Notes under the pieces: generated by a model
What the model saw: the letters and a program-made list of their open reading frames with translations, nothing else
Database searches by the model: none
What the model was told of the DNA's origin: nothing
Shown here: piece by piece, positions 10,841 through 46,600 of the stretch
Layout of the letters: every line of letters starts with the position of its first letter
Position numbering within the stretch: position 1 is the stretch's first letter
Origin: a virus
Lineage: Duplodnaviria; Caudoviricetes
DNA length: 64,000 nt
Direction: 5' to 3' (one strand)
IMG/VR virus record: IMGVR_UViG_3300024269_000024
Coordinates: 32,001 to 96,000 of that record
Made by a program: the position numbers and the translations under genes

Positions 10841-11887
10841 ATGAAGAAATATAACCGTAAAATTGATGTAATTATACCCGCCTACAATGTGCCAGATCAT
10901 GTCCTATTTCGTTGTCTTTCTAGCATTTCTTGCCAAGACATCGTATCTGACCTTGAGGTAACCATTGTAGATGACGCTTCAACTAAACAGAACTACGCTG
11001 AAGTAATTAAAGCTTTTACTCCGGTAATGAAAATCAATCTGCTACGATACGAAATTAATGGTGGTCCAGGCGTGGCACGTCAATATGGTATTGATCACAC
11101 CAAGAACGGTTATATGACCTTCATTGATGCCGACGATACTCTAAATGGAGCCTTCGCACTCAAAGCACTGCGCAACGGCATTGAAATGGGAGACGGCATC
11201 TTCCATATGTGCGTTGGTGTTTTTGATGAAGTGCATGAGGAAGGGTTTAAGCCTGGTGAAGGCCCAATTCTAATGACACATGAGCAGGATATGGTTTGGA
11301 TGTTTGGTAAGCTTTATCGTAGAAGTTTTATCGACAGATATAAGATTCACTTCCATGAAAGCTCTAGAGCAAATGAAGATAATGGCTTCAATACCATGAT
11401 TCGTCTGTGTTCTAGCGATCAAGAACAGATCAACTTCATTCCTGCTCATGTGTATTATTGGCATGAGAATCCCAACAGCATTACTCGCGCAAATGACTGC
11501 CAGTATAGCTACGGCAGCTCTGAGCGTGATAGCTTCTATGGTTATGTTGAAAATATGATTTTTGCAATCAAGGAAGCTAAGACCAGAAAGCCATATAATG
11601 GTTTTATTACAATGTGGTCTGTAATGTGCATGTTAAATATTTATGAGTATTACATTGAATGTTATGCTCGCGCAAGAGAGCATGCGGATACTAATTTCAA
11701 GTGGTGTAAGCGTTATTATGACGAAGTTTATAGTTTAATTGAACATGATATTTCCGATGAAATTCTTGCAGAGCATTATAACGATGTAATGAAGAATGCT
11801 TATATGGGGGACAAGCTGAATGGCATTATTCCTTGTATGGGCATTTATGAATTTTTAGATAAACTAAAGGACGCAAGTGTTGATTGA
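10841..11887 (+). CDS. Family 2 (GT-A) glycosyltransferase
   Basis: VIIPAYN, IVDDAS, GPGVARQYG, FIDADD (DxD motif) and EDNGFN motifs. Confidence 0.9.
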   Translation: MKKYNRKIDVIIPAYNVPDHVLFRCLSSISCQDIVSDLEVTIVDDASTKQNYAEVIKAFTPVMKINLLRYEINGGPGVARQYGIDHTKNGYMTFIDADDTLNGAFALKALRNGIEMGDGIFHMCVGVFDEVHEEGFKPGEGPILMTHEQDMVWMFGKLYRRSFIDRYKIHFHESSRANEDNGFNTMIRLCSSDQEQINFIPAHVYYWHENPNSITRANDCQYSYGSSERDSFYGYVENMIFAIKEAKTRKPYNGFITMWSVMCMLNIYEYYIECYARAREHADTNFKWCKRYYDEVYSLIEHDISDEILAEHYNDVMKNAYMGDKLNGIIPCMGIYEFLDKLKDASVD

Positions 11888-11914: not shown

Positions 11915-14053
11915 GTGAGTGGTTCATATAAAATATACGCCTCTGAAAATTACGTCTCAGAACAAATAAATGTAGCTATCGAATCTTTAAAGGACGATGG
12001 TTACATTGTTGAACCAAAGTCAAATGATATACCAAAAGTTTTTATAGATGGTATAATCCCGACTACAAAGGACGATGCGCTTGCAGAGTTGACTTATATT
12101 TCCGCGACGCACCAATTCCATGCTTATTTATTAATTAAGTGTCAAGGAACTTCGTCTATGAAATATCCAAAGAAAAACTTTACCATAAAGCTATATAAAG
12201 ATGAGGCTCGTTCCGAAAAATTTAAAATAAATTTTAAGGGCTGGGGACGGCAGTATAAATTCTGTTTGAAAGCAAATTGGATAGATATATCTCACACAAG
12301 GAATATTGTGTCAGCTCAAATTGCCGGAGACATTGTTAAGACGCGTCCAAATTATTTAGAGCTTCCTGAGCTTTTGCGCACCAGTCCAAACCAGGGCATG
12401 ATAGATGGCTTTCCAATTAAAGTATACGCAAATGGTATATATCAAGGCCGGTATACTTGGAATATTCCAAAGGATGCTTGGATGACTAACATGGATGGTT
12501 CGCTTGATAACCATTGCATTCTTTGCGGTGAAAATTATGTAGGCGGATGTTTTCGCGCCCTACCTTTAATAGATGGAACTGACTGGTCTGACGAAGTTCA
12601 TGATAGTGCTCCAGCTTCCATAGTGTCTCGCTGGTCTGAAGTTGTAAATTTTGTAATGACAAGCAGCGATGAAGATTTTAAAGCAAATATAAGCAATTAT
12701 ATTGATTTGCAAAGTCTAATTGATTATCATATATTCGGCATATATGCTTGTGGTTCAGACTCGTATGGTAAAAATCAAATCTATTTAACTTACGATGGAA
12801 TTAAATGGTATGCCTCACTTTACGATCTTGATACTACTTGGGGTTTGTATTGGAATGGTGAAGCTGTAATGGGTTATGACTATGGACGAGAAAAATATGA
12901 AGATAGGATTCAAAATAGAGAAGGTAACCTTCTATTTGAGAGAATAGAGCAAAATTTTTATTTAGAGCTTCAAGCTAGATGGGCAGAATTAAAACAATCT
13001 GCTTTGTCTATGTCCAACGTCATTAATCGTTTTGAAAGATTTTCTGACTTATTCACTTCTGATTTGATTAAAGAAGATTATGCTTCTACTACTGCTGGCG
13101 GTGCTTATAGTGGAATTCCTTCCGTGGCCAAAAATAATATTCAACAGATTAGAAATTTTGCAGCCGCACGCAGAAGTTGGACTGATGAGTATTTTAATAG
13201 CTTAACTCCAGTAGTAAGAATTCCTTGTACTGGTATTACATTATCTGCGACTGAATTAATTTTCTTAGAAGCAAGCTCTCAAACCATTACTGCTTCTGTA
13301 ACTCCAGTAGATACCACAGATAAAATTATTTGGTCTTCTGATAATACTGAAGTAGTAATAGTAGAGAATGGAGTTGTAACCGCTATTGACAATGGTACAG
13401 CTACTATAACCGCTACTTGCGGCGACTATTCTGCTACTTGTTCAATTTCTGTTTCTGGTATTGAAGAACCAGTAATTCCAGATGAACCAGAAGTTGATGA
13501 AAGAATTCTCTATCAACTACCTGAACCTACTACCTTTACTGGCTCTAATTATATTGACACTGGTGTAGCACCTCTTGCCGAAGATAAACCATTTACTCTT
13601 ATACTTGACTGGACGCACACTGGTGAAAGTGAATTCGTTGGAAGCAGATATGTTATTGCTCATGCTATGACAGAAACTTCTCCATATCCAGGTATTATTC
13701 TACAATACAATAGTAATGGTATTGTTTCTGAATATAGACAGGGCACAAATACTATTTCTTCTAACTCTACCAGCGGTCTCATTGACAATGCTGACCTACA
13801 TCGCGTAAAGGTTGTATATCGCAAGGACGAAAGTGGTAAAGTTACTGTCGCGAGATGTTACAATGAAAATGGACAAATCCATAAGAATGAAAAAACTATG
13901 GATTATTACGCAGTACATGAAGAGCTACGACTTGGATGTTATCGCTCCAACGTTGGAGGAACAGGACGTTTTGCTAAGGGTCTCTTAAATGATTGTAAGA
14001 TTTATAACTACGCATTAAGCGATGAACAGATGGAAGAATTACTTACAATGTGA
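11915..14053 (+). CDS. CotH-family kinase domain fused to Ig-like (Big_2) and LamG/ConA-like domains
   Basis: QGTSS..PKKNF, LKANWIDISHTRN, YQGRY, D...KN and YDLDTTWG match CotH motifs. 'TASVTP.DTTDKI.WSS' is Big_2-like; 'L.DCKIYNYALS' is a LamG-like ending. Confidence 0.8.
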   Translation: MSGSYKIYASENYVSEQINVAIESLKDDGYIVEPKSNDIPKVFIDGIIPTTKDDALAELTYISATHQFHAYLLIKCQGTSSMKYPKKNFTIKLYKDEARSEKFKINFKGWGRQYKFCLKANWIDISHTRNIVSAQIAGDIVKTRPNYLELPELLRTSPNQGMIDGFPIKVYANGIYQGRYTWNIPKDAWMTNMDGSLDNHCILCGENYVGGCFRALPLIDGTDWSDEVHDSAPASIVSRWSEVVNFVMTSSDEDFKANISNYIDLQSLIDYHIFGIYACGSDSYGKNQIYLTYDGIKWYASLYDLDTTWGLYWNGEAVMGYDYGREKYEDRIQNREGNLLFERIEQNFYLELQARWAELKQSALSMSNVINRFERFSDLFTSDLIKEDYASTTAGGAYSGIPSVAKNNIQQIRNFAAARRSWTDEYFNSLTPVVRIPCTGITLSATELIFLEASSQTITASVTPVDTTDKIIWSSDNTEVVIVENGVVTAIDNGTATITATCGDYSATCSISVSGIEEPVIPDEPEVDERILYQLPEPTTFTGSNYIDTGVAPLAEDKPFTLILDWTHTGESEFVGSRYVIAHAMTETSPYPGIILQYNSNGIVSEYRQGTNTISSNSTSGLIDNADLHRVKVVYRKDESGKVTVARCYNENGQIHKNEKTMDYYAVHEELRLGCYRSNVGGTGRFAKGLLNDCKIYNYALSDEQMEELLTM

Positions 14054-24566: not shown

Positions 24567-27356
24567 ATGATGGGAATTTCAATTTTAGAAGCATTACGTC
24601 GATCTGTTCGTTCTTTATATGTTAAGATTCCTACTGAGCTTAGTGTATCTGGTAACAAGCTGTTCTTGTCGCATAATGGCACACTATTAGACGAGGGTAT
24701 TGAATATAATCCTGGCGGCGGTACTGGTGGTGGCAGCGCAGGATATGTCACATTAAAAAATTTATTATATTCATCAAGTATTACAGCTGCGCATGGCAGC
24801 ACCGTAGAGCTAAAATTCTCATATGCAACTACAGAGGAAACAGATGACGGTAGTGCGAGTATTTATTTGGATGATGTTTTACAAATGACAACCTCAATTA
24901 AAAGAGGCGAAAATTCAATTGATATTACAAAATATTTAAGAAGCGGAACTAATAATATCAAGCTAACATGCTCAGATCCCTATGGCAACGAAAGATCTCT
25001 TAAATATACTGTTAGCGTTATATCTCTATCTCTTACAACCAGTTTTAGTGACGCAAAACCGTATACTGGTGATTATTTTGAAATTCCATATATTTTAACA
25101 GGCGATGGAGAAAAAATAATGCATTTTGAGTTTGACGGAGAGGACATTACTGAAACAGTATCTTCGTCTGGCACAAACTCAAAAAAGACAATTTATTTTG
25201 AAACAAGAGGGCATGGAACGTACACATTAAAAATGTACGCGGAAATGGAGCTCTCTGGTCAAACTGTTACAAGCGACGTTTATTATTTTGATATTATGCG
25301 CGTAATGGGTACGACGCCTTTGATTAGTTCAGTTTGTGACATTGTTAGCGCGAAACAGTACGAAACAGTTGGTATTCCATTTGCTGTTTATCATGCGACA
25401 GATGCTGCGCCCGTTGTTGACCTTATTATTAGTAAAGACGGTGTAGTTCATTCTCAAAAAACAATGACTGCGAATCGTGGAGAGCGAGTTATTTGGCATG
25501 CAAGAACAACAATAGTTGGTAATGTTGATTTTACTATTTCATATGATGGCGTAAGCAAAACTCATACTATTGCTATTACAGAAAGCGATATTAATGTGTC
25601 TGTAAGACAAAATGATATGGCATTTGAGTTGAGAGCCGCTGGAAAGTCAAATAATGACACAGATAAAGATGTGTGGGTTAGTAGCATTGGAGATGTATCT
25701 GTAGATTTTGAAAATGTTGGCTGGAATGTTCAGCAAAAAACATTTATTGTAACAGGCGCTGATTCTGGTTCAGAAATAAAGAAAAAATATGCAATTGGCA
25801 CTGGATGGGCTACCGATGACAACGGTGATACTGCACTGAGATTGTCAGGAGATGCGAGAGCTACAATCAACTTTAAGCCATTTGCTGAAGACTGGACTAC
25901 GTCAAAAACAATTGAGATGGAATTTGCAATTCGCGATGTTAATAACCGTGACGCAGTTGCGATTTCTTGTATGAATAATAATGTTGGTTTTAAGATTACT
26001 GCGGACACGGCTTCTTTGATTCGAAATAATGTTCCTATTGTAGAAGCGAAGTATGTAGATGATGAAAAAATTCATTTGGCGTTTGTAGTTGAAAAGCAGG
26101 TTATGAACGATCATACTGTTAGACTGGTTACATCTTATTTGAATGGTGTGCTGTCTAGCGCGGCTACGTTTGCTGAGAGTGATTCTATATTTCAAAATCC
26201 TGCCGTTAATATATCTGTCGGGTCTTCTGACTGTTCTCTTGACTTATACATGATGCGCTTTTATGATGTTGCTCTTACTAGTCATGAGTTGAGAGACAAT
26301 TATATTGCGGATAGCATGGATGCAGATCTATTGGCAGATAATGATGTTTATGTTAATGGTGCAATTGAATATAGTAAGCTAGAAAACAAGATTCCAGTTA
26401 TGAGAATTACTGGCGAACTTCCTTCTAAAAAGGCGGATTCAAATAAGAAAAAGGGCGGCAGAGATTATCCTGTTGATGTAATTTATACAAATAAAAGCCC
26501 AATTCCAAGTATTCAAGAGAATAATGTGTTAATCCATGTACAAGGCACGAGCTCCGAAGGATATATCAGAAAAAACTGGGACCTTGATTTTGAAAATGAA
26601 TACCAACACATGGATGGACAGTTGCCAACCGACTATTTTACTATGAAAGCTGACTATGCAGAGGCTACAGGCACGCACAATACCGGCAATGCAAACTATG
26701 TGCATACTTTTTATACTGCAGATAAGTTTAGTGATGATGCGCCTTTTGTCATTGATCCACGCGCAAGGTCGACGATAGCTGGATTTCCATGTGTAATTTT
26801 CCATCGCAAAACAGAAAGTGAACCATATACCTTTGCTGGAAAATATAATTTTAACTTTTCAAAAGATTCTGAAAATGTATTTGGGTTCACAGCTACTCGT
26901 GAAGATGGCACTCCAATTTACCCAAAAATTCAGTCATGGGAATTTTGTGAAAACAAATATCTTGCATGTAGGTTTAGACAAGACCCAGATGCTTCAGATA
27001 TTACAGAAGATAATTGGAAAGAATGGTTCGATGACAGATATCTTTACGATGGCGGTGACCTAGAAGACTTTAAAATTATGTATCGCTGGGTTTATTCTAC
27101 CTGCCAGGACAATGCAACAGGAGAAAATCTTGCCGATGCTTATGTGGATGTTGACGGTGTAACTCATACTAAAGATACAAAAGAATATAGGTTGGCAAAA
27201 TTTAAGACAGAGTTTAAAGAACACTTTGATTTAGATTTTAGTCTTGTTTATTATTTGTATACTTTTGTAATGTTGATGTGTGACCAGAGAGCAAAAAATA
27301 TGTTCTTGACTTCATGGGATGGAATCATATGGCATCCGTGGCTATATGACAACGAT
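24567..27356 (+). CDS. Exon 1 of a large (about 1978 aa spliced) virion-associated protein: Ig-like and LamG-like domains plus N-part of a CotH-like kinase
   Basis: 930 codons ending ...HPWLYDND; CotH-like motifs VQGTSS..Y.RKNW, MKADYAE..GTHN, GKYNFN, DQRAKN. The ORF track runs on into the intron to 27425. Confidence 0.8.
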
Positions 27357-28375
27357 AAAAATTTTTATGTCGTTGTAAAACCTTTTCTAATATACGGCGA
27401 AAATCATGAGAATGATAACGCCTAGGAAAATCATAAATAAGTTTTCGATATTTATTACTAATGATAAAGAGGTGTAATTAATTTTATGCCAAGAGTTAAT
27501 GTGCTTGAAAAATATATCTATTTAATTGGGCAAAAAATCAATAAATGGACCGTTTTAGAATTAAAGCGTGATAGAAGAAATTGCGACGCTATATGCATGT
27601 GTGAATGTGGGAATATAAAACCCGTCAATGTATACAATCTTATTAACAATAAAACTCAAGATTGTGGATGTGGCAGAAAAGCAATGCTTAGAGAGGCAAG
27701 AACTAAAAATTTAGTTGGACAAAGGTTTGGAAAACTTGTTGCTGTAGAATTGTTGGAAGAGAGCAATAAATTTAATCGCAGGCTGTATAGATGTAAGTGC
27801 GACTGCGGCAATGAAATCATTGTTCCAAGCAGTTGTTTGACCACAAATCATACTTCTTCGTGCGGATGTATTCTATCATATTACAACATGTATATTGACA
27901 TTTTATTGGATAAACTTAATGTTAAGCATAGGCCAGAATATACAATAACTATTGATGGACATAAATTTAGATATGATTTTTATTTATGTGATTATAATTT
28001 AATTATTGAATATGATGGCGAACAACATTATATGCCAGTTAATTTTGGTGACAATGATCCAATTAAAATGGAAGAAAATTTAAAAAGGGTTCAAGAACAT
28101 GATCGTTTAAAAAATAAATATTGTGAAGAAAATAACATAAGCCTTTTAAGAATCCCGTATTGGGAAAAATATAATATCGATAAACTTATTCACGATTGCC
28201 TACAACGACTGAACGAAAAGGATCTTGCTAAAACAGCTTAAGCAAGATATGTAACAGTCTGAACTGCAACTATAATCTAAAAATGAAATTGCAGAGGGAA
28301 GGTCGGCGGTAACCAGACCGTCTTGGAAGAACCTTCCCCGCTTGTAGAAATACAAGTCATAAAAGTAACAGAGTG
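27357..28375 (+). mobile_element. Group I self-splicing intron (1019 nt)
   Basis: The 5' exon ends in U, and ACAACGAU pairs with the IGS GUCGUUGU (27369-76) including a U-G wobble. P3 CCTTTTC (27381) / GAAAAGG (28215); P4 GGCG/CGCC; P5 ATCAT-GAGA-ATGAT; P7 GACTG (28207) / CAGTC (28255); P8 ATCTTGCT/AGCAAGAT; P9 hairpins including CTTGTA-GAAA-TACAAG; terminal G at 28375. Removal restores YDND|TCLG in frame. Confidence 0.9.
27486..28241 (+). CDS. Intron-encoded homing endonuclease (two Cys-rich Zn modules plus a Vsr/DUF559-like nuclease)
   Basis: Two 'G..F.K..V.....C.C.CGN......L....T..CGC' repeats, then 'RYDFYL....IIEYDGEQH'. It lies inside the intron and its 3' end overlaps P7/P3/P8. Confidence 0.8.
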   Translation: MPRVNVLEKYIYLIGQKINKWTVLELKRDRRNCDAICMCECGNIKPVNVYNLINNKTQDCGCGRKAMLREARTKNLVGQRFGKLVAVELLEESNKFNRRLYRCKCDCGNEIIVPSSCLTTNHTSSCGCILSYYNMYIDILLDKLNVKHRPEYTITIDGHKFRYDFYLCDYNLIIEYDGEQHYMPVNFGDNDPIKMEENLKRVQEHDRLKNKYCEENNISLLRIPYWEKYNIDKLIHDCLQRLNEKDLAKTA

Positions 28376-31300
28376 ACATGTTTAGGCATTAATAATGAAG
28401 GCTATCTTCGTTACGATTATTACCATGAAGATTTAGGACAAAACGATGCTGTTGGCGCAACCAACGTGTATAACGGATATGATTCCGTGCTATGGAATAA
28501 CTTTGCAGAAGCATTTAAAGATGATATTCAAAAAACATATAGCTCGTGGAGAAGTGGATATTCTCCGCTATTAAGTTACAATAATGTTATGAAATATTTT
28601 ATAACAGATCAGTCTGATAAATGGTGTATATCTATTTACAATGAAGACGCAGAATACAAGTATCTATCAATGTACAGGAATGGCGACGACTCTTCTTTCT
28701 TGTATCAAGTTAAAGGCACAGGCGAAGAACACTTAAAGTATTTTATAAAAAATCGTTTGATGTATTGCGACTCAAAGTGGCAAGCAGGCGATTTTATTAA
28801 TAAGGATACAAATACTATTTTATTGCGCCTAAACTCCCCTGACGGCATTGAGGATGATGCAATTAAACCAGATATGACGATTAAGTACAAAACATTCTCT
28901 AATATGTATACTGGTGTGCGTTATGGTACTAACGGCATATTGTCGTCTATATACACAGACAGAGGCAAACTAGTAGAACATAAAATGCCAGATGGTGAAG
29001 ACCCAAATAACCTTGATACATATATTTTTGGTGCCAACGAAATTTCTGAGCTTGAAGATATGTCGTTATTGTATGCAAACTTAATTAATATTAGTGCAGC
29101 AAGCAAATTAACAAAGCTAGTAGTTGGCAATAGTCATCCAAATTATAAAAACGATGTTTTAAAAAGCCTGTCATTTTCTAATAATAGACTGTTGAGAGAA
29201 GTAAATGTATGCAATTGTACTGGACTGACAATGACGCTTGACTTCTCGCTATGTCCAGATATTCAATATATTTACGCTACTGGTAGCAAGATTTCAGGTG
29301 TACAATTGCCAGATTCAGGTTTCTTAAAAGTCATTCATCTACCTGAAACGGTTAGTAACCTTACATTTGTAAATCAGCATCACATAGAAGAATTTATTTG
29401 CGAAGGATATGGCAATGTTACTACGATCAAGATAGAAAACTCCAATAACATTCCATTGCAAGATATTTTACTTGGTTGTGATTCTTCTGTGTTGGCATCC
29501 GTATCTGTAAAAAATATTAATTGGAATGTTAGCTCTGAGGAAAATCTACAGATAATTGTTGACAAACTAATAGCATGCAATGGATCGGTTGTTGAAGGTG
29601 CAGTTTATTTGCCAAGTGGCGTAACTGTATCGGATGATCTAAAAGTTACAATTCATCAGAACTTTCCAAACTTAAATGTTATTGATGATAATCCAGTATT
29701 CTACATTGACTATTTTAATTTTGATAATACAATTTGGGATACTGAAATGGTAAGTGCAGGCGAAGATGCAATTGGTCCACAGAAAGGTGATCCAGATGAT
29801 ATTGTGCAAGAAGCATTTGGATTAAGACACTTGTTTGTACAATGGAAAGCATTGCCTGTTAATGTAAATAAAAATCATCAGATTGATGCAATATGGCAAA
29901 CTCAATATTGGGTTAAATATTATGATAGCGACATATTGCTGTATGATTATTGGGCAGATCAAGGTAGCGAAGCAAAAGATCCAGTGTTAGATGGACCTAT
30001 ACCAGCACCAGAAAAACCTGGCAATGATGAGTTGCGATATTCGTTCAATGGATGGGACAATTTGCCAACGAATATTCAAAAATCGACAAACATAAACGCC
30101 CTCTGGTCCAACGTTTACCCCGTCCGCTTCTATGCAGCAGAAACCTCTACAATCCCACACTATGTACAATGGGTTAAAGAGGGCGAAGATGTTCATGATC
30201 CAATATCAACAAATGAGTGCGCTGCACCAAGTGACATTGTAACTGAAGATATTACACATGTGTTCTCTAATTGGAACAACATCCCGACAAATATAACTGC
30301 AATTACAAATGTATATGCAGAATACTCACCGTTCTGGGCTGTGCGCTTCTATAATGGTTACATCCTGGAAGACACTCAGTGGATACCAACAGGTGGATCT
30401 GCTGTAGACCCAGTTAAGTCAGGGCGCATTGTAACTCCTACAAGAGAAAGTACTGCACAATATGATTTTACATTCTCTGGTTGGGAAGGTAATTACACAA
30501 ATGTAACTGATCCTAGAAAAATTATGGCTACATTTGACTCGACTATTAGAAGATACACTGTTTATTTCTACAATGATGACGAGATATTGCAAACAATTGA
30601 AAACGTACCATATGGAACTGCAAATGTAACTTACACTGGCAGCACGCCAGTAAAAACAGGAGTGGATAATCCAGAAGAGTACGTGTTCAAAGGATGGGTG
30701 CCAGCACCAGAAAACATTACTGGTGACACCGAATGCTATGCGCTATTCAAGTTTACTGGATATATTTTCGGAAAATTGAGTAATGATAGCGAATATGGCA
30801 CTGTGGACAATCCAAACTGGGATGCAATTAATGCTTATTGGACCATAATTGGCTCCGATGTTGACGCTTACATAAGTGGATCTATGAGTAAATACGATTT
30901 CTACGCAAAGTATCAAATGGGTGGACGAATGATTATTCCTATTGCACTTTCTGGCAGTGATAATATCGTTGCCGATGTTGAAATCATTGCACGCGATCAT
31001 GACGATTTGGCAAGCGGCTCTGGTAAAGCTCCGCTAACATTCTTCTGTAAAGATTTGCCGCAGATAACTAAACCAATGAATGCAGAAAAAGACAATGATG
31101 GAGGATGGGAGTTGTCTGAAATGCGCACGTTCGCTAATGGTGAATTGTTTGACGCATTGCCGCAAGAGCTCAAGGCATTAATTAAGCTTGTAGCTAAAAT
31201 TTCTGACGGAGGCGCAACTTACAAGGCGTTAGTTACAACACACGATAAGATGTGGCTCGCATCGTATGACGAGGTTGGTTTTGTTGACGATGCTACGTAT

Positions 31301-31522
31301 GGACTATTGGGTCAAGGCACTTGGTATAAAGACGTGTTCCCAACAAAAAATAGTCGTGTAAAAACAATTATAGATGATACTGCTGCGGCTGGCTGGTGGT
31401 TGCGTTCCTCTCACTATGGAAGCATAGATAGCTCCTTGTTCATTCAGGTTACTAAAACTGGCGGTAAGTATTGTTACTTCCCGTCAAGTGCACTATATGT
31501 GGCATTTGGATTCTGCATATAA
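28376..31522 (+). CDS. Exon 2: CotH C-part, LRR region, InlB-B/Flg_new-like repeats, C-terminal C-type-lectin-like (DUF6273-like) domain
   Basis: Starts TCLGINNEG; LRR-like 'LREVNV.NC..L...LDFS.C..I..IYA.GS.I..V.LP'; five 'V.FY.....F.GW......T...V.A.F' repeats; ends 'WWLRS...F..V...G........VAFGFCI'. Confidence 0.8.
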   Translation, partial: TCLGINNEGYLRYDYYHEDLGQNDAVGATNVYNGYDSVLWNNFAEAFKDDIQKTYSSWRSGYSPLLSYNNVMKYFITDQSDKWCISIYNEDAEYKYLSMYRNGDDSSFLYQVKGTGEEHLKYFIKNRLMYCDSKWQAGDFINKDTNTILLRLNSPDGIEDDAIKPDMTIKYKTFSNMYTGVRYGTNGILSSIYTDRGKLVEHKMPDGEDPNNLDTYIFGANEISELEDMSLLYANLINISAASKLTKLVVGNSHPNYKNDVLKSLSFSNNRLLREVNVCNCTGLTMTLDFSLCPDIQYIYATGSKISGVQLPDSGFLKVIHLPETVSNLTFVNQHHIEEFICEGYGNVTTIKIENSNNIPLQDILLGCDSSVLASVSVKNINWNVSSEENLQIIVDKLIACNGSVVEGAVYLPSGVTVSDDLKVTIHQNFPNLNVIDDNPVFYIDYFNFDNTIWDTEMVSAGEDAIGPQKGDPDDIVQEAFGLRHLFVQWKALPVNVNKNHQIDAIWQTQYWVKYYDSDILLYDYWADQGSEAKDPVLDGPIPAPEKPGNDELRYSFNGWDNLPTNIQKSTNINALWSNVYPVRFYAAETSTIPHYVQWVKEGEDVHDPISTNECAAPSDIVTEDITHVFSNWNNIPTNITAITNVYAEYSPFWAVRFYNGYILEDTQWIPTGGSAVDPVKSGRIVTPTRESTAQYDFTFSGWEGNYTNVTDPRKIMATFDSTIRRYTVYFYNDDEILQTIENVPYGTANVTYTGSTPVKTGVDNPEEYVFKGWVPAPENITGDTECYALFKFTGYIFGKLSNDSEYGTVDNPNWDAINAYWTIIGSDVDAYISGSMSKYDFYAKYQMGGRMIIPIALSGSDNIVADVEIIARDHDDLASGSGKAPLTFFCKDLPQITKPMNAEKDNDGGWELSEMRTFANGELFDALPQELKALIKLVAKISDGGATYKALVTTHDKMWLASYDEVGFVDDATYGLLGQGTWYKDVFPTKNSRVKTIIDDTAAAGWWLRSSHYGSIDSSLFIQVTKTGGKYCYFPSSALYVAFGFCI

Positions 31523-31617: not shown

Positions 31618-33480
31618 ATGGCTGAAAAAAAGCTTCATGGACGTATTGTGCATAAGCATGATACTGCCTCAAATTGGGCCAAAGCAACCAGTTTTGTGCC
31701 CATGAAGGGCGAACTTATTATATATGATATTGATGACACACATGATTATGAACGTTTTAAAATTGGCGACGGCAAGACTACTGTAAATGCGCTGCCGTTC
31801 GCAGGTTCAACTAATGATTATACTATTACAGAAAAGAACAAACTAGCTGATATCGAAAATGGTGCTAATAAAACAATTGTTGATAGCGCACTTTCTTCGT
31901 CTAGCACCAATCCAGTACAAAATAAAGTTATTTATGACACTTTTGATAGCCTTGTTGGCGACGACCCAGTGTCAGATCAAATTACAAAAGCAATTGCTGA
32001 TAAAGTTGATTCTAAGGATGCGATCACAGGTCTGTCTGCGTCGGGCCAGACTGTAACATACACTAAGGGAGATGGTACTACTGGTACCATTACCACTCAA
32101 GATACACATATTACTTATTCTGCTGGTACTGGCATTGCGCTGGATGGTACGACATTCAGCAACTCTGGTGTGCGCTCCGTAGCCACTGGTTCTGCTAATG
32201 GTACTATTTCTGTAAACACAAATGGCATTAGCGCAAATGTTGCAGTTAAGGGACTAGGTTCTGCTGCATATACGGCTTATACCGCCTATGATGCGGCTGG
32301 GGCGGCAAACAGTGCATTGACAGACGCGAAGGAATATGCTGACGAACTATATGAAGGCATTACTCCTGAAAGTATTGGTGCGCTACCGATTACTGGTGGC
32401 AATATCACTGGTTATTTTAGACTTAAAAACCATGCGAAATACCCTGAATTTAGTTTCTGGCCTAGCTCACTTGCATCGGTGGCAAGTAAAATGATTGCAA
32501 ATGTTGCAATGTCTGATGAAGTCATCACTTCTAATCATTTATCTTTTAGAGAGTTGAGTTACGAGTCTGGAACTAATAATATGTTGCAAACGTATGAAAA
32601 TTACAATCTGCCTCGCGTCGATGCGGATAAAACCACAAATAACAATTACGACATACTCACGACAAAAAATCCTGTCACAGTTGCTCAAGGTGGCACAGGC
32701 GCAACGACAGCAGAGACAGCTTTAACGAATCTTGGTGCAGTATCTCAAGATGCATTCGATGCGCATAGCCATAGTTATATTGCGACTACATCTGAAAGTG
32801 GTTCATCTTCGTTTGTAGATTATAGAACACTTTCTTTTAAGGCTGGCACTGTACCTTATGGTGATACTGTAGATGGAAGTTATAACAGCCCATATGGCGC
32901 ATATACTAGTGGAGGAAATCAAGTTGACTATGGTTCTTTGCTAAGAGCGAATTTTTCTAATGCTTATTATACCGATCTTTGGTTTGATGCTAATAGAAAA
33001 ACACTAACATATAGACAAGTGATAAATGGTGTTTCTCAAGGCTGGAAGCAATTGGTGGACACCAGTGGCGCAACTATGACTGGTACACTTATTGCGGGTG
33101 GAGGATTTACTGTTAAACAAGAAAGCACTTGGCCTGCTATTGATTTTCAATGCGGCAGTGGTAACGATGGCTCGTTTGGCCTTGCCACAGGTACATCGAC
33201 ACTGAATCGAAATTATTTCTATTTCCGCGAGAAGAGTCAAAATTCTTCTGACTACAGTTCGCTGAGTTATTATGAGGACTATAGATTACCTTATCCCGAC
33301 AAAGACCGTACTAGCAATGGCACATATTATATTTTAACCACCAAAGATGTTGTCACTGTTGCACAGGGCGGCACTGGAGCTACAACAAAGGCCGATGCTC
33401 GTACAAATCTTGGTATAAAATCAGGCACATCACTTCCTGAAAGTGGCACAGTGGGAGACATTTTCTTCCTGCACAATTAA
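31618..33480 (+). CDS. Tail fibre protein with an Mtd_N-like N-terminus
   Basis: 'HKHDT..NW.KA..FVP.KGE.IIY...FKIGDG.T.V.ALPF', 'DSALS.SSTNPVQNKV', two 'TVAQGGTGATT...A..NLG' motifs; ends GTVGDIFF. Confidence 0.75.
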   Translation: MAEKKLHGRIVHKHDTASNWAKATSFVPMKGELIIYDIDDTHDYERFKIGDGKTTVNALPFAGSTNDYTITEKNKLADIENGANKTIVDSALSSSSTNPVQNKVIYDTFDSLVGDDPVSDQITKAIADKVDSKDAITGLSASGQTVTYTKGDGTTGTITTQDTHITYSAGTGIALDGTTFSNSGVRSVATGSANGTISVNTNGISANVAVKGLGSAAYTAYTAYDAAGAANSALTDAKEYADELYEGITPESIGALPITGGNITGYFRLKNHAKYPEFSFWPSSLASVASKMIANVAMSDEVITSNHLSFRELSYESGTNNMLQTYENYNLPRVDADKTTNNNYDILTTKNPVTVAQGGTGATTAETALTNLGAVSQDAFDAHSHSYIATTSESGSSSFVDYRTLSFKAGTVPYGDTVDGSYNSPYGAYTSGGNQVDYGSLLRANFSNAYYTDLWFDANRKTLTYRQVINGVSQGWKQLVDTSGATMTGTLIAGGGFTVKQESTWPAIDFQCGSGNDGSFGLATGTSTLNRNYFYFREKSQNSSDYSSLSYYEDYRLPYPDKDRTSNGTYYILTTKDVVTVAQGGTGATTKADARTNLGIKSGTSLPESGTVGDIFFLHN

Positions 33481-37616: not shown

Positions 37617-40600
37617 ATGGCGAATGGAAATGTGTTAGGCACATATGAGTTTCAATTTAATTTTAATGCAAAAGATGCAAAGAAACAGATATTGTCAATT
37701 TCTAATGACTTTAAAAGTCAGTTGCAAGAGATGGATACCGCCTCAAGCAAGATGTCCGTACTTAGCAACATAGTTGGTTATTTAGAAAAACTAGACAAAG
37801 CGCTCGATCAATTTAAGGCAGAGCATAAAGATGACTTTAAAAATATGTTTGCTGGGTTAGATGATCAGCTGGCAGGCTCTTTGAAGTCTATGCTTGGTAT
37901 GTCAATGCAAGATTGGGACAAGTTGACTGGAATAAAGGGACGTATTGATGCCGCGAAAGCCAATAAAGCTAAACTTCCAGAGTTACGCGCAATAGCACAA
38001 GATCTTAATTCTTTGTTCACAATGATCGGAGACAGGGAATTTATTGATATTGATAAAATGTTTAAACAAGGCAAGGGTGTTAACGCTAAATTTGATGATC
38101 GTATCAAAATTTTAAGTAATGCTCTTGACGAATTTTACATGTCTTACCAGTTTGTTACTAATTCTATTAAAGATGGATTTGGTACAGGTGGTATGGCTGG
38201 TATTAGCAAGATGAGCGAAGAGGCCAAACAAGAGGCTCAGGCGCTTAGGGATTCGGCTAGAGAACTAAGAGATGCACAACAGCAGATGTTGATGGCGCAA
38301 TCAGATATACATAGCGCCGAAAAAGGGAACAAGGGCATTCAAGAAAAGTATAGAATAGATTTGACTGCAGACGCAGTTCGTGGTTTAATCGACGATTATG
38401 AAAGCCTAGATAGTAAGTTACGTGATAGTAAATTGTCAGCAAAAGAATACTGTGACACTTTGTTGCAAATGTCTGAGGTTATTATCAAGTTAAAAAATGC
38501 ACAAAAGGCAGTTGAAGCCAACGAAGACTTTAAGGGTGTTTTATCAAACGAATCTGGTTATACTGGTGGTAATACAGCTCGTCCACAAGATAGCTTTTTA
38601 TCTGGATCATTATCTTTGTATTCTAAAGTGCTATCAAAAGATCTTATGGATAGACGCATGGGGAATCAATTTGCTGTTTATATTCAGGATATAATTGATC
38701 AGAAAATGCAGCGATTTGTTGAACTTGTTCCCAACATTATTGGCAACGGACTGAGTGGAACACACGGTACTGGTTCTGGAACAGGAGATGGTTCAGGATC
38801 TGGTATAGGTGGTCTTTCACTTGATAAGTTAAAAGCTGAGCTAGATAAATATAAATCTATGTTTGAGCAGTCTCTAACTCCTGATTTAGAAGAAGACGAG
38901 TTAGTAAGGCTAGAAGAAGAGTGCGCGAAGATAATAAATGGGCTTGTTGAAATATGCCGATTAAGTGAAAGCGCAGGTGACGAGTTTAGAGACATATTTG
39001 TCGATTATGAAGAAGACAATATAGATTTTAATGAGCTAACTGCTCAAGTGACTAAATTTTTAGGTATATCTGACCAAATTTCAGATAGTACGTTTAAAGG
39101 CGTCGGTCAACATGCAGTAACTGCCACGGAATACATCCACGCTATGACAAACGCCATCAGAGAAATGTTTGATGTGTTGTCTAAGTCATCTGATATTGAA
39201 TATAAAGCGCTTATTGGTGGTACAGATATTGCTATAAGGGCGGGGCAAGAAGGTGAAATATCAGCAAAAACTACCGCAGAAGCTTTTTTGGCGAACTTGA
39301 TGCAGGATACCGATGTAGAAGCGCATAGCCATATGGGACGCGGTTCCTTTATTAATGCACCAGACTTTTTACAAGCAAAACGTCATCAGTATGGTGGTTT
39401 AGCTAAAATAAGTGCCGTTATTGGAGGCAAAGATATTGTAACCTTGGACTTGTCAAAAGTTAAAATGGAGGATGCAGATGTCGCTTATAAAAAATTACAA
39501 GAAGTAACAAGCGGTAGTGGACGGACAGAGATTCCAGTAGAAGAGCTAAATAAAATTTTAACAGATATCAATCCAGAATATACGGATGTTGCTAGAAAAT
39601 GGGATCCCTCAAACTTCCGTGAATTGGCTACATATATATATAGTGTAAAACAAAGTGCCGAACAAAGCATTGGTCCGTTAGAGAAGTTACAACAGCTATT
39701 AAATGTTTTAGCTCATTCGAAGGTAATTAATTATTCAAAATACAGTGATATGTTGAACGGTCTCACAAAAGACAATGTTGGCGAAGTATTTAATCATATT
39801 GCAAAGGCAGAAGGTATAACAGAAGATAATGAAACATTACAGGTAGACGCGGGAGACATATCAACAATTTCTGTTGATGCACTTATTGCAGATATCCAGA
39901 GAAAAAAAGATTTATTGGATGAAAAGCGAAAGGCTCTTCAAATTACATATCAAGAGATTGAAGATATTGCGGAAAAGTATGCGAAAACTAGAAGTTCAAA
40001 AGATAGTGAGGAGCGTAATTTTTTTAAGCAATATTTTCATGCGAGCGAGTTGCCAGAACTTGATAAGCTATTTATAGATAAAGCATCTGGAGACATTGGA
40101 ATGTCTGATGTTGTTAAAAATATTGCAGCTAGATTTGGTGTACAGGAACCGTCTCATGCGGAAGAAACCGTACAACAAAGCGCAGAAGAGCAGGCGGAAG
40201 CAATAGAATATGCAAAGAAAATACTAACTAAAGCATGGCAAGATTATTATAAGGCAGCGCAAGATGCAAAAGAAGCTGGGATTAGAATTGAAGATGGCGA
40301 AGTTTCTGAAGAGATGCAAAACATCCAAAATTCTATCACAAAGATGGTGGATCAATGGAAAACTCGTTTGCCAAATGGAAAAGATGCGTCATGGCATTTA
40401 GCCGCCTTGGATGGCTACATTACAGATGAAAAAGAAGCATGGACATTTGATGAGATCAAACACAAGATAAGTGAGGCTTTTGACGACAATAAGATCACTC
40501 TTGGCATCCCACTAGATGAAATTAAAAAGCAAGCTAGTGGGCTAGAAGAACTACAAGAAGAAATAAAATCCACGGCCCAAGCAGCCGAACAAACAGGAGA

Positions 40601-43600
40601 GGCCACAAAAAATGCTCAAGCCGCAACAGCCACCAGCGAGGCAGAAGTCGCACAAATGGGCGAGCTTGCAGGAAAAGTCAAAGAAGTTACAGAATCCGTT
40701 GAAGCGAAAACTAGAGCATTTGGAGAGGAAGCAGTTGCAGTAGATGAAGTTGTGACTAAAGAAATTGAATCTCTGGATAGATTAAAAGAATATCTTGAAA
40801 ATCTACAACGATTAATTTCTCAAATCTTTTCAGGCGAGCAGTTGAAAATTGGAGAGCTTGATGGTATTGACGAAAATGAAAAAAGTAATACTGGCAAGAG
40901 TTCAATTCCTGGCTTGTTAGGTGAAATCTCAGCGCACCTCAGTTCTATTTGTGGAATTTTAGAAGGCGTCACTGGTGTTAAATCAAAAGGTGAAGACTCT
41001 GTAACTAAGACTAAGCCAGTTGTAGAAGATGCTATTGGTGGCGATGGTCTTGACGATCAGGACTTTGGCGTGTTAAATCAAATGCTTGGTGCGCTTAAGG
41101 AAATCAGTGGAACTCTTACGGCAATGAAATCAGACGTTGATTCTGGCGATACATCGAAAAAGAGTTATGCTTTTGACGATACTCTACAGCAAACTAATGT
41201 AATTCTCAATAACATTTTAGGCGCAGTTAAAAATGAAGTGCAGGAAGGCAAAAACATTTCCAATGTACAAGAAAGTATTAGCAAGCTGATTAATGCTTTA
41301 ACGCCAGCTGTTAGTACATTGTATGACGTTGCAAGTGGCATTGTGCAAGCTCAAGAAAGAACTAAGACAAGCACAAGTCTTGCACAGGCAAGAATCGCCA
41401 ATAATCAAACTAGAAATGATTTAGTTGCCACTGCGCTTGGAGCGGTTGATTACAAAAAAATAAATGGTGGCAGTAGCAAAGTTACTGCTATGATACCGCG
41501 TACTGATGGTATTGTTGAAATGGTTGGGTATATTCAAACTGCTACTGATGAATGGGAACAGTTTACATTGCAGGTTGATGAGGCAAATAAAGTAAGCATT
41601 CTTGCTTATGACGTTAATGGTCGGGCTGCAAAAGAAGCTGCACGGGCAGCGAAAGCGCTCAAAAAAGAAGAGGAAAATAATCCTAAGTACAACCCTCTAG
41701 ATACCGCTAAAAAAGCACGTGAAGAATTACGCAAGCGTGGCGCAGATGACACGGAAACTACAGTGCAGTTTAAAGACAGCGGAAGATACACTGTCACTTC
41801 AAAAAAGACAATTGGCAATTTGTCTCAGGAAATTTTCCAGACATTTGATGAAGATGTCAAGGCAATGGAGCGCACGACCGTTACGGTGTCCGATCATATT
41901 GCTACTGAACTTGCAAGGGCGCACAAATTTATTACGGACAACTCGGCGAACATTGACAGTAAATTGTTGCAAGACTATAAGAGTGCGCATGATATGCTTG
42001 TTAATACAGATTGGGAAGGTAATAATGATCTTGATGGATGGAACAAGCAAATTGAGTTGGTCAAGCACTTAGGCAAAGAAGTACAAAAAGTTATTGAAGC
42101 AAAACGTAAGTTGAATGAGCAGCCAAATGCTGTCGCTAATGATACGAGATTAAAGGCTTATCTTGCGCAAGTGAATGATGCATTTAAATCAACTGGCATT
42201 GATGTTAATGCTCCAAAGACAAAGGAAGAAGAGGCAATTGTCGCAGCTCGCGATGCAGCGCTTAATAAACTGCTAGAGGTTAAAACCGTACAGGGCAATC
42301 TAGTAGATCTCAATGGACAAGAAAAACAAGCTGTTGATGCAGTGGTAAAAGCTTTAACAGACAAGACCAGCGCCTACATTCAAACTAAAAAGAACGCTGA
42401 AGCGGCAAAGCAAGCTCAGGATGCACTAAACAATATTCCAACTGCAAAGAGCGACCAGGCAAAGAATCTTAAGGATTTTACTGACAACTTAAAGAACTCA
42501 AACTTGTTGACCGCAGATTTGTCTGGTCGACTAACTGACATTAACAGCCAATTAAATAATGTTCAAACACCAGATCAACTAGATGAGTGGATCGAAAAGT
42601 TTGGAAAATTACAGACTGATATTGAGACGTTTATGCAGTCGCTGAAACAGGCTGGCATTGTAGGTGGCAAAAGTAAAGTAGACGACACACAGCAGTTTAT
42701 CCTTGATAATATCGATGATGTTACCAACGACAATCTGTTCAATGCTTATGCTGATGCGCATGCAGAACTTGTCGATATACAGAACAAATATGCCAAACAG
42801 CCTTCGTTGAGTCAAGCAGACATCGATGCATGGAAATCTCAGATTGATCATGTTAGACTTCTTGGTGATCAGATTGAAAAATTAATTATCAAAAGACAAC
42901 AACTTGCTGCTCAACCAGGTGTTGCATTAAGTGCAGAAAAGTTGGGTAAATATCAGAGCGACGCAAAAAGCATGCTCAAAGATTCTGGTTTCGATATAAA
43001 TAAAGAGGAAGACGACGTAGTTTACAAAAAGATTAAGGAAATCTATGGCAAAATACACGATAAGACAAAAGAATTACAAGGTAGCAAAGCTGTATTGACA
43101 GATGATCAAATTGCAGAATTTAATAGCTTAATGGCCAATCTTGAGACTTGGACTAAGAGGTATTCTCAGAGGAGACAAGACGAAGAAACACGTCAGAAAT
43201 TTAATCAAGACAAGCTATCTCAACAAGATGCATTTGACAAATATAAAAATGGCCTTAGCGGCATGGGCGACATGTCCGATGAGGTTAAACATAAATTAGA
43301 GCAACTAGGAGAAGAGCTTAAAAAGATTGGCGATCAAGATGCATTGGATGCATGGAAAAAGAGCTTTGAAGAGCTTCAGTCTACTGTCTCAAAAGGTTCT
43401 TTGTCAGAAATGGCAGATCTTAAGAGACAGACTAGCGCGCAAGTTAGAGGTTTGGATTTCAAGGATACGGACACTGACTTAGATGATGAGCAAAAAGAAA
43501 TTATAGCTCTGCGAAAGCAATTAATGACTCAGATTGATGAGTATGTTGCAAAAGTTAAAAACGGCGAGACTGCAGAGATTAACGGTATTAATGCAACAAA

Positions 43601-46600
43601 AGAAGCGCTAAATGAAAAGATTCGTCTGTATAAAGAAGCGCATAATACTAGCGAACAAAAAGCCAACCAAGGTGTTTATACGGGAGAGTTAAATAAGTAC
43701 AAAAGAGATATAAACAAAGCCATGAATAATATTGGCTTTAATGCAACAGACGAAAGTCTTGAAGGTGAACAAAAGAAAATTGCCGATATGTACATGAGAA
43801 TGCGTGTTCAGATTGAAGAGTGTACTGCGGCAGCAAAACGAGGCGAAGAAGTGCAATTGAGTGGTATTAGAGATATCGTAGCTGAATTGCAAAAAGAAAT
43901 TAATCTTTATAAGCAAGCGAATGGTATTTTTGACAACAATAAGGTAAATCGTGATGTTGCAAAGGCTGAGCGTGGATACAATCTCGCCACTTATAATTCT
44001 AAAGCATATAGTGGTTCAGAGGTTATAACTGAAAAATTGCAAAAATACAAAGCGGCTTTGGATGATTTAAAAGACTTACAAAAGAAAGCTAATAGCGTCG
44101 AAGGTTTGACTGCAGATGAAGCAACTAAGTTTGATCATTTGATTCAGCAGTGTAATAGATATGCGCAGGCTATAGATGGAGTCATTCAAAGTTCAGACAA
44201 ACTTGCAAAGAGCCAGAAGACAATAGATGTAAAACCTGTTAAACCAGGCACTAATGTTGATGATATACATAAGATTCAAAATGCTCTAGAAGGCTATGTA
44301 AATGAAACTTATGATGCAAAAGCGGCCATTGATGGTTTTAATTCAGATACTAATACATTAACTTTTACAGTCAAAGAAGCGGATGGAACAATTAGAAGAT
44401 ATGCAGCATCTTTGAATGCGGCAAAAACTGCAATTGTGACTACCTATGAAGGAGTCGGGAAAGAGACTTCTTTACTTGGTGAGTTGTTTGGTGGCTTAAA
44501 GCGCAAAATGAAAGAGCTGTGGACATATGCTGCAGCTAGATTGGGCGTTGACGAGTTAATTCAGGCGATTAGAACTGGAATTCAGTATGTAAGAGAAATT
44601 GATAGCGCGTTGACTGAATTGAAAAAAGTTACAAATGAAACTGATGCAACGTACAGTCGTTTCTTACAGAATATGTCTAAAACTGCAAGCGTGGTTGGAA
44701 GTACTGTAAAAGATCTGACAACTATGGCTGCTGAGTGGAGCCGTTTGGGCTATTCTCTTGAAGAAAGTGCTGAACTGGCCAAGAATACAGCAATCTTGCT
44801 AAATGTTTCTGAATTTACTGATGCGACACAGGCGTCTGAAGCACTTATCAGTACAATGCAGGCATTCCAGTATACTGCGGATGAAAGTGGACATGTGGTT
44901 GATATTTTAAATGAGGTTGGTAACAATTATGCCGTCTCATCCGATGGCATAGCAACCGCATTGAAAGACTCCGCCAGTGCACTTATGGAAGGCGGAAATA
45001 ACTTAGAACAGGCTACAGCTCTTGTTGCAGCAGCAAATAGAGTTGTGCAAGATCCAAATTCTGTGGGCAGTGCCCTCCGTACAATTTCTCTCCGTCTCCG
45101 TGGCACTTCAGTAGAAGTCCTCGAAGAAATGGGCGAAGCAACTGACGGAGTAGTAGAAAGTACAAGTAAACTCCAAGAAAAATTAAAAGCACTAACTGGT
45201 GTAGACATTCTTACCAACACGGGTGCTTATAAAGATACATACACAATTTTAAAAGAAATTGGCTCCGTATGGCAAGACCTTGGTAGTCTTGACCAAGCGG
45301 CAGCTCTAGAACTTATGGCGGGTAAGAATAGAGCTAACACTCTATCCGCAATCTTAAATAACATGTCAGACCTAGAAGGAGCCTATGAGTCTGCCATGAG
45401 CGCCAATGGTTCTGCAATTCGTGAAAATGAAACTTATCTTGATTCAATTGAAGGTAAAATTTCAAAGTTCAACAACGCAGTTCAAACCATGTGGATGAAC
45501 TTCATGAACGATGACGCTGTAAAATGGATTGTCGACCTAGGTACTGCGACAATTAAACTTATAAACACATTAAAGCTCGTTCCAACTGCTGCAGCGGGAC
45601 TAACAGCAATTAAAACTTTTTCCGTAAGCGCAAAAGATTCCCTTTCAGCTTTAGGCGAAGGACTTAGCGGTTTAATTACCAACTTTGGCAAGGAAGGAGT
45701 TAAAAATCTTGGCGCTACGATTGCCTCACAAGCAGGTTCCATTCTTGGCAGCTTGGGCAAGGGCCTTTTATTTGGCGGAGCCGCTTATGTTTTAACTACT
45801 GGCATTAGTCATATTATTACTGCTATTGATAAGTTAGCTCATAGCACCGAAAGGGCAGTCGAAAGAGCAGATGAAGCACTCAATAAATACTCTGACAAAC
45901 AAAAAGAACTTAAAGACCAAAAAACTACCGTAGATGAGCTTTCTGATTCTTACATCCGTCTATCAAGCGGCGTAAATACTTTGACCAATGACAACATTGG
46001 TTTAACTGTAGAATCATATGAAGAATATCTTGATGTTGTCAATCAAATTGCAGATTTACACCCAGAGCTTGTTGCAGGTTATGACGCAGAAGGCAATGCA
46101 ATTTTAACACTAAAGGGTAGAGTTGATCAGTTAGCGGACTCGTATCGCAAGGCACAAGAAGAAGCGGCGCTTGAGCTATTGACATCTAAAAATAAAACAG
46201 ACATTTGGAAAAAATATACCAGTGGAATGGACACTGGCGTGCAATATATTGATGAAAATAGCGGAAAATCTGGTTGGGGCAGCGTCTGGCAAGATGTGAC
46301 CGCAGACAATCAAAAAGATATTGTCGAAGCAATTTTGGCCATGAGCAACGAAGAGTTGACTCAGTTTTATGAATATGATAAGACTGGCAACGACGACATG
46401 TGGGGCATTTTACGGAAGCAGCTTTCTGACATGGGTACAGTTTTAGACGAAGGTCTTGTATATGCTGCATTTAATAAAGGATTTAGTATAGGTGACGATG
46501 AGCTTCATTCATTAGATACTTATAAGGCTTATTTTATCAACCAGTTATCTACATTAAATCAGACTATATCTGAGAGTATGAGTGGTATTCGTCAGACCGT

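Follow-up and report, generated by a model that had tools for sequence, protein, structure and literature searches.

The td and nrdB introns of phage T4 are group I introns that each lie in a conserved enzyme motif and carry the open reading frame (ORF) of a homing endonuclease, I-TevI and I-TevIII respectively, in the loop of P6. The nrdB intron also lacks P2. Here we describe positions 27357 to 28375 of a 64,000-nucleotide (nt) stretch of viral DNA (Duplodnaviria; Caudoviricetes), hereafter the window, which covers positions 32,001 to 96,000 of the IMG/VR record IMGVR_UViG_3300024269_000024 (158,032 bases, rated 95% complete). These positions are very probably a mobile group I intron, lying in a gene for a CotH-like protein of 1978 amino acids (aa) that belongs to the tail/lysis region of this gut phage.

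I-Bth0305I, encoded by the recA intron of the Bacillus thuringiensis phage 0305phi8-36, is described as the prototype of the EDxHD endonucleases and as cutting beside the recA insertion site (PMC3239194). The same account gives it NUMOD2/helix-turn-helix (HTH) motifs in its N-terminal part, the residues D196, H213 and D222, and an ORF that interrupts P5 (PMC3239194). In CotH of Bacillus subtilis, mutation of the catalytic D228 or of the metal-binding D251 is reported to abolish kinase activity (PMC7821199), and CotH-type domains in phages are stated in one account to be unstudied (PMC8008677).

The plus strand of the window holds three ORFs between positions 24567 and 31522 (24567-27425, 952 aa; 27486-28241, 251 aa; 28373-31522, 1049 aa), which agrees with the original prediction, made from the sequence alone, that three ORFs would be reported here. 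When position 27356 is joined to position 28376 by script, the outer two fuse into an uninterrupted frame of 1978 aa with the sequence ...IWHPWLYDND|TCLGINNEGYL..., so that the proposed join across WLYDND|TCLG holds in silico. The insert splits LYDND|TCLG between D and T, inside the CotH-like kinase domain. The prediction had also named contiguous homologues as something to look for, and two were found, both of them uninterrupted at the junction. Residues 71-1395 of the predicted spliced protein align in one stretch with a 1673-aa gene product of phage NatCom_3357, and residues 52-1397 align with a 2262-aa gene product of Bacteroides phage BT-TP2. Across the junction these alignments are ungapped, with LYDNDTCLGINNEG in the spliced window protein against PYDFDTAIGINNEG in NatCom_3357 and PYDMDTLFGVRND in BT-TP2.

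The boundaries can be placed exactly. Contigs of four public sequencing runs were compared with the window, each run being typed as 'DNA?' by guess, and in run X9 (bovine gut) a 320-nt contig corresponds to 27123-27356 and continues at 28376-28461, skipping exactly 1019 bases. Its flanks of 234 and 86 nt carry 6 and 5 differences and are about 97% identical to the exons. The intron-less form that had been suggested as a check is thus represented by an exact 27356|28376 joint, and because the contig skips exactly 1019 bases the boundaries are fixed whichever its origin. An ambiguity of one base is left, as there is an A on both sides, and the only alternative register lies one base to the right, where both group I splice-site rules would be broken. 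With 27357-28375, and with no other choice, the 5' site follows a U and the intron ends in G (G28375), which settles the register. The spliced RNA would be expected to read ...GACAACGAU-ACAUGUUUA... at the junction.

Alleles lacking the endonuclease gene occur in close relatives. Both exons have 84-85% DNA identity to the window in three IMG/VR contigs (L003, L004 and L005), where about nine bases stand in place of window positions 27429-28198 and leave a 256-nt intron at the identical codon boundary. The encoded protein is 94-95% identical over the 100 residues that flank the junction on either side (measured in L017, the same contig as L004) against about 84% for the DNA, which indicates that the interrupted gene is under selection. 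Since a selected gene keeps the ORF-less insert in these relatives, which is hard to explain otherwise, we infer that the insert is removed from the RNA by splicing. The same alleles tell against a gene that is truly split, in which a nuclease gene and the remnants of a dead intron would separate two polypeptides (952 and 1049 aa), or the parts of a pseudogene, without any splicing. We consider this highly improbable. In its favour, both halves are open, with GTG 28373 as a formal start of the second. However, this GTG consists of the last three intron bases, and the purine-rich ribosome site that precedes the nuclease ORF has no counterpart before it. The break, moreover, separates the D from the T of a motif that runs on unbroken in all the uninterrupted homologues examined. 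The core helices of the insert, described below, are also all intact and covarying.

Short forms are not confined to the IMG/VR contigs. In runs X1, X4 and X7 contigs were found with three ORF-less forms, the joints of which skip 755, 800 and 819 bases. X1 and X4 also hold contigs that are identical to the window (27374-28330) across both ends of the nuclease cassette, alongside their ORF-less contigs (joints skipping 800 and 819 bases), and ORF-bearing and ORF-less forms therefore coexist in one sample. Either X1 or X4 may be the source run of the window itself.

The group I pairings claimed by the original prediction could be located as P1 and P3 to P9.2, and covariation backs P3 to P9.2. 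The elements follow the order P1, J1/3 (AAAA), P3, P4, P5, P5', P4', P6 (with the ORF in its loop), P6', J6/7 (CAA), P7, P3', P8, J8/7, P7', P9, P9.1, P9.2 and tail, which is the group I scheme. P1 is formed by ACAACGAU of the exon and the guide GUCGUUGU, the last exon base U27356 pairing with G27369 as U.G. P2 is absent. P4 pairs 27396-99 with 27419-22, P5 pairs 27403-07 with 27412-16, and P6 pairs 27423-26 with 28199-202. A hand reading with GGGAAGGU of the 3' domain as the partner of CCUUUUC was dropped, as the relatives show this partner to be GAAAAGG (28215-21) and GGGAAGG to close P9.1. Removal at the protein level as an intein, or as another kind of intron (group II or bulge-helix-bulge), has next to no probability. 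Nothing speaks for it beyond the interruption of a conserved motif. The exon 1 frame runs 23 codons into the insert and then meets a stop at 27425, which excludes an intein, and the ORF of the insert lies in another register and has its own start. Pfam gave no intein or reverse-transcriptase domain, and the P3-P7-P3'-P8-P7' scheme, the U.G pair and the terminal G are those of a group I intron.

Relatives of this intron were collected from IMG/VR with a pattern for the P7 strands, which returned 90 stretches that reduce to 67 distinct cores, and the group numbers at least as many. Even the window and L003 alone differ by compensatory changes, namely three pairs in P3 (CCUUUUC/GAAAAGG vs CUCUCUC/GAGAGAG), two in P5 (AUCAU/AUGAU vs ACCGU/ACGG) and one in P6 (UAGG/CCUA vs UUGG/CCAA), and both have the P8 hairpin with very different sequences. 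A plain MAFFT alignment was made of 25 ORF-less members, that is, the 28 flagged minus L025 (a false positive of the ORF-less filter), L041 (misregistered, with a long P6 insert) and L087 (a near-copy of L009). In it 93.0% of 848 cells were paired, compared to 73.2% after shuffling and 36-42% when the partners were slid. Over the different pair counts the corresponding ranges were 93-98%, 72-73% and 31-44%. RNAalifold alone predicted P3, P4, P6 and P6a from this alignment.

An alignment of 45 matches guided by a covariance model had 96.5% of cells paired, with changes on both sides in 30 of 35 pairs (P3 7/7, P4 4/4, P6 4/4, P7 3/6 and P8 3/3 covarying), but the model was built from the 25-member alignment and is biased towards nested helices, with P7 outside it. 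The selection of the first set leaves P7 no room to vary, but a search with another pattern, anchored on P4, added members in which P7 covaries, such as L109 (CGAUCA/UGAUCUG) and L114, L117, L121 and L149 (CGACUA/UAGUCUG). For the 3' domain, 23 3' halves, that of the window among them, were aligned with plain MAFFT. Here 97.9% of cells were paired, and 26 of the 37 pairs covary (P8, P9, P9.1, P9.1a and P9.2).

Chance was addressed in several ways. The P7-strand core pattern has one match in the window and no second one in the whole record, and 100 shuffles of the window gave none. Over the 64 kb the family covariance model matched the two halves of the intron alone (70.1 bits with E 3e-14, and 46.5 bits with E 8e-9), and its next-ranked hit had an E value of 1.8. 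The ORF-less allele folds with -79.3 kcal/mol (z = -4.84), and its minimum free energy (MFE) structure contains P1 (with the exon), P3, P4, P5, P6, P8, P9, P9.1 and P9.2. At other insertion sites the guides differ, each again matching the exon end found there and closing with U.G (CAUCGGU/GCUGAUG in L023, CUUCGCU/GGCGAAG in L068 and UUUGGGU/GCUCAAA in L054).

The ORF in the P6 loop matches PHROG homing endonuclease families with E values of 5e-27 to 9e-14 and Pfam DUF2726 with 26.4 bits (cut-off 24.7), and its DNA is similar to Staphylococcus phage ORFs annotated as 'group I intron-associated VSR homing endonuclease'. Nine relatives align over the full nuclease and have in common two or three Cys-rich repeats (C.C.CG ... 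CGCG) and the C-terminal block R.D...IEYDG..H...D..K..YC...LLRIPY. D164, E175, D177, H181 and D206, which are not mapped with confidence to the EDxHD residues, are invariant in all nine. NUMOD modules gave no Pfam match at E <= 0.01, and two Cys-rich beta repeats are found instead. The AlphaFold model of the 251-aa protein (pLDDT 81) has as its best Foldseek match the catalytic domain of I-Bth0305I (3r3p; prob 1.00, TM 0.57-0.64 on the target), followed by Vsr (1vsr and 1cw0; prob 0.99-1.00), and on this model the C-terminal domain is predicted to have the Vsr fold. The last 14 codons of the ORF (LQRLNEKDLAKTA) overlap P6', J6/7, P7 and P3' and run through the 5' strand of P8 into its loop, where the stop codon UAA (28239-28241) lies.

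Several observations weigh against a group I intron at this position. The search with the Infernal group I model, which had been proposed as a check, came out negative. RF00028 has no match on the window (at gathering or at E <= 10) or on the 256-nt ORF-less allele (E <= 10), a failure to recognise an intron that also favours the split gene considered above. At the pattern-marked cores in the loci of the first 20 relatives there is likewise no RF00028 match at E <= 1, the only match in these loci being at L018 2191-2482, outside the marks of the P7 pattern, where the family covariance model later scored 71.7 bits. Three group members have sub-threshold matches (L018 2191-2482, 37.1 bits, E 6e-6; L149, 23.5 bits; L121, 21.5 bits), and all members stay below the gathering score of 50 bits. 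We read this as a blind spot of the RF00028 model, but by that standard of membership the result still counts against the intron. A blastn search with the ORF-less intron against 50,697 GenBank phage records returned nothing, and hence no close relative studied by experiment is at hand; the corresponding search with the window stretch found the nuclease core only. A P1 of 6-10 bp ending in U.G can be drawn in 21 of 24 relatives, a count without a chance statistic, and the other three lack a convincing one (3 bp in L010, 4 bp in L094, and in L037 a longest helix that does not adjoin J1/3). The Foldseek E values of the nuclease (0.011-0.07) lie above the tool's line of 0.001. Because run X9 is typed 'DNA?' by guess, its joined contig may come from a close relative with an intron-less allele or, should the run hold RNA, from a spliced message. 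Finally, P4 has only four pairs, and P10 could not be drawn (at most one base pair).

The short P4 and the absence of P2 and P10, together with the overlap of the nuclease ORF with the core, are also what speaks for a group I intron that does not self-splice and needs a helper, either an intron-encoded maturase or a host factor. This is unlikely, though less so than the other alternatives. The whole fold is kept in the ORF-less alleles, which have no intron-encoded protein, and at least four unrelated nuclease families are found in the same loop among relatives, which argues against a dedicated maturase. A group I intron, the features of which are collected in Table 1, is still the reading that we prefer.

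Table 1. Positions in the window of the probable group I intron, its predicted RNA and protein elements, its exons and a CotH paralogue
Feature	Positions	Strand	Evidence
Probable group I intron, 1019 nt, phase 0	27357..28375	+	Frame restoration, homologues, covariation, exact joint in contig
P1 5' strand, exon ACAACGAU	27349..27356	+	Sequence; P1 recovered in MFE fold of ORF-less allele; 5' splice site predicted after U27356
Internal guide sequence GUCGUUGU, P1 3' strand	27369..27376	+	J1/3 AAAA next to it; guide differs at other insertion sites
P3 5' strand CCUUUUC	27381..27387	+	Pairs with 28215-28221; 7/7 pairs covary, 100% of cells paired (45 relatives); predicted independently by RNAalifold
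P4 (GGCG/CGCC) around P5 (AUCAU GAGA AUGAU), with A-rich J4/5 and J5/4	27396..27422	+	Covariation
P6 5' strand UAGG and P6a 5' strand AAUC, endonuclease cassette in the loop beyond	27423..27432	+	4/4 P6 pairs covary, 100% paired
Shine-Dalgarno-like AAAGAGGUG, purine-rich, 11 nt upstream of the endonuclease ATG	27466..27474	+	Sequence only
Putative homing endonuclease gene, 251 aa	27486..28241	+	Two Cys-rich N-terminal repeats, C-terminal Vsr/EDxHD-like nuclease domain
P6a 3' strand GAUU and P6 3' strand CCUA	28194..28202	+	Sequence, covariance model, covariation
P7 5' strand CGACUG, after J6/7 CAA	28206..28211	+	P7 covaries in relatives found without P7
P3 3' strand GAAAAGG	28215..28221	+	Covariation
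P8 hairpin AUCUUGC/GCAAGAU	28222..28248	+	Strands 28222-28 with 28242-48; 97.7% of cells paired, 6/7 pairs covary
P7 3' strand CAGUCUG, U28260 bulged, after J8/7 AUGUAA	28255..28261	+	P7 pattern, covariation
P9 hairpin CUGCAA/UUGCAG	28264..28294	+	100% of cells paired, 5/6 pairs covary
P9.1 (GGGAAGG/CCUUCCC) and inner P9.1a (GGCGG/CCGUC), conserved GUAA..AGAC loop	28296..28338	+	98.1% and 95.7% of cells paired, 7/7 and 4/5 pairs covary
P9.2 hairpin CUUGUA GAAA UACAAG	28341..28356	+	95.5% of cells paired, 4/6 pairs covary
Conserved 3' tail ...AAAGUAACAGAGUG, terminal G28375, 3' splice site predicted after it	28357..28375	+	GUAACAG invariant in 23/23 rows of the 3'-half alignment, the ends of which were chosen with a pattern requiring the final G
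Exon 1 of the 1978-aa CotH-like tail-region protein	24567..27356	+	Codons 1-930; PHROG 14959 positions 584-1158
Exon 2: remaining CotH-like domain, repeat region, C-terminal DUF6273	28376..31522	+	Codons 931-1978; PHROG 14959 positions 1538-2024
Intron-free CotH paralogue, 712 aa (comparison only, outside the element)	11915..14053	+	CotH E 1.6e-27, 97.3 bits to Pfam

From this layout a course of splicing and homing can be proposed. In the pre-mRNA the guide would pair with the last eight exon bases, with U27356 in the U.G wobble of P1, and the core would fold from P3-P8 and P4-P6, closed by P7 and extended by P9-P9.2. Free guanosine held in P7 would attack after U27356, the terminal G28375 would then take its place, and the exons would be ligated to LYDND-TCLG, restoring the kinase domain. 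In a mixed infection the endonuclease would cut intron-less alleles near YDND|T, and repair off the intron-bearing genome would copy the intron in. The boundaries, the covarying helices, the uninterrupted and ORF-less alleles and, by modelling, the fold class of the nuclease are observed, whereas self-sufficient splicing chemistry, DNA cleavage and homing are all proposed here from the sequence. The course includes a possible conflict, as the endonuclease ORF ends within P8, after P6', P7 and P3', and ribosomes and a folded ribozyme core would exclude each other on one RNA.

The original prediction regarded a CotH-like gene as an unusual host for a phage group I intron. This stands for the published literature, where our search found no paper linking group I intron, CotH and phage, but not for IMG/VR, where no other kind of gene hosts the group as often. 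By tblastn, the exons at 30 of its 67 distinct cores are CotH-like. Within the CotH domain the insertion sites were read by eye from the 3' exons, without statistics. Five cores lie at AG|KYNFN, at least 15 at YDxD|T, which is the site in the window, and about 15 rows, some of them near-copies, at LG|xNNEG in phase 1. The nucleases in the P6 loop of the relatives include Vsr-like, GIY-YIG (L082, 24.6 bits), LAGLIDADG (L015, 27.6 bits) and treble-clef zinc-finger (L025) types, and an HNH type with NUMOD4 (L059; NUMOD4 53.2 bits, HNH_3 20.6 bits, below its cut-off of 24.8). It is conceivable, but we would not call it likely, that this compact P2-less group is a specialised parasite of the CotH-type kinase domain in phage tail proteins, that a single ribozyme core has come to target at least three CotH motifs with hardly any change beyond its guide, and that nuclease translation and ribozyme folding, being mutually exclusive, form a switch between spreading and splicing. 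The sites, nuclease families and frames are seen in the sequences, whereas the specialisation and the switch are conjecture.

Some further features of the group were observed. Nuclease ORFs of different families (e.g. L059, L015, L082 and L014) all end inside the ribozyme core, and the P7 strand CAACGACUGA is read in all three frames, as ...QRL..., as ...NND-stop with the stop inside P7, and as ...TTE.... An intron of the same group with the guide GUCGUUGU of the window lies six codons downstream in a CotH-like gene (L037 1360-1680, on an IMG/VR contig of 160,883 bases). Its site, ..YDDDTSLGND|NVGGLS, follows the look-alike CAACGAU, as if the intron had jumped to a similar site close by. Three matches to the family model within about 1.5 kb, in both L068 (221-388, 1082-1246 and 1460-1624) and L018 (1430-1574, 1886-2043 and 2286-2488), suggest that some genes carry several introns of the group.

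The outer two ORFs match PHROG 14959 (profile length 2494) collinearly, and gene context places the interrupted gene in the tail/lysis region. In phage NatCom_3357 the homologue stands after the tape-measure and Dit genes and before holin and endolysin, and in the window tail-protein and endolysin genes come after the split gene. Homologues, the exact joint, covariation and this context together uphold the central claim of the original prediction, namely that a structural-module gene is interrupted by a group I intron directly behind the YDxD motif in its CotH-like domain. With either unspliced half as query there is no match to the Pfam CotH family PF08757 (cut-off 23.8 bits). The BT-TP2 homologue matches it with 32.2 bits, in a match that spans the junction, and the NatCom_3357 homologue scores 18.6 bits, below the cut-off. 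Residues 577-1005 of the spliced protein also align with the CotH paralogue of the window (E 2e-10), which reads SLYDLDTTWG at 12815-12844, where the motif had been said to be. The spliced protein has D-QRAK-N, followed by the two Asp of YDND 22 and 24 residues on, a spacing that resembles the one from D228 to D251 in B. subtilis CotH. With its D-x4-N and YDxD residues kept, the protein may be a functional kinase. In BT-TP2 a reverse-transcriptase gene (L002 10282-11499) follows the CotH-like homologue, and some homologues may thus be targets of diversity-generating retroelements.

The CotH paralogue also has Big_2 and Laminin_G_3 domains, and the phage thus carries two CotH-type domains in its structural region. 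NCBIfam held no family for the proteins of the three ORFs or for the paralogue, and PDB sequence searches with the paralogue matched no CotH structure. Immediately upstream of the paralogue, the ORF at 10841-11887 (plus strand) matches a GtrB-like O-antigen-conversion glycosyltransferase (PHROG 22739, E 3e-11). Downstream of the lysis gene there is one open frame of 5668 aa (37617-54623, plus strand).

These findings have consequences for annotation. Gene callers will give three unrelated ORFs here and miss the 1978-aa protein, and intron screens based on Rfam miss the whole group. As a result, databases routinely contain large tail proteins from phages of gut and rumen in split form. Repeated homing into three CotH motifs marks these as the most conserved DNA of such genes, and the introns are natural markers of them. 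A new group I ribozyme model might be built on the ORF-less alleles, whose 256 nt are short and well defined, and an Rfam family could be seeded with them.

How does this locus compare with described systems? With the td and nrdB introns of T4 it has in common the position in a conserved motif and the nuclease ORF in the P6 loop, and with nrdB the lack of P2. In contrast to both, its host is a CotH-like tail-region protein rather than an enzyme of nucleotide metabolism, its nuclease is Vsr-like rather than GIY-YIG or HNH, the P7.1/P7.2 helices are lacking, and the ORF runs into P7-P8. With I-Bth0305I as described (PMC3239194) it shares a group I intron of a large phage and a two-part endonuclease with, as modelled, a C-terminal Vsr fold. 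It differs in that its nuclease has Cys-rich repeats and no NUMOD match, lies in P6 and is only 17% identical to 3r3p.

A closer likeness in sequence is found in introns of Staphylococcus Kayvirus phages (e.g. the terL region of OP432864), with the nuclease annotated as deposited, the core of which is 80-84% identical in DNA over 62-75 nt. The core motifs are alike (AACGACUA ... AUAGUCUAAAC in Kayvirus and AACGACUG ... ACAGUCUGAAC in the window), and as a rough check of sensitivity the Kayvirus terL region has no Rfam match at E <= 1 either. Unlike the window, these introns have a terminase as host gene and a P3-P6 part that differs in sequence and layout. Compared to Intron_gpI of Rfam (RF00028) the helix order is alike, and its structure line in three relatives marks the same P3, P4, P5, P6, P8 and P9, but the scores fall far under the 50-bit cut-off (none for the window and 21-37 bits for the relatives). 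This kind of element has long been known, and what is new is the host gene, an intron group invisible to Rfam, and a nuclease ORF that overlaps the ribozyme core.

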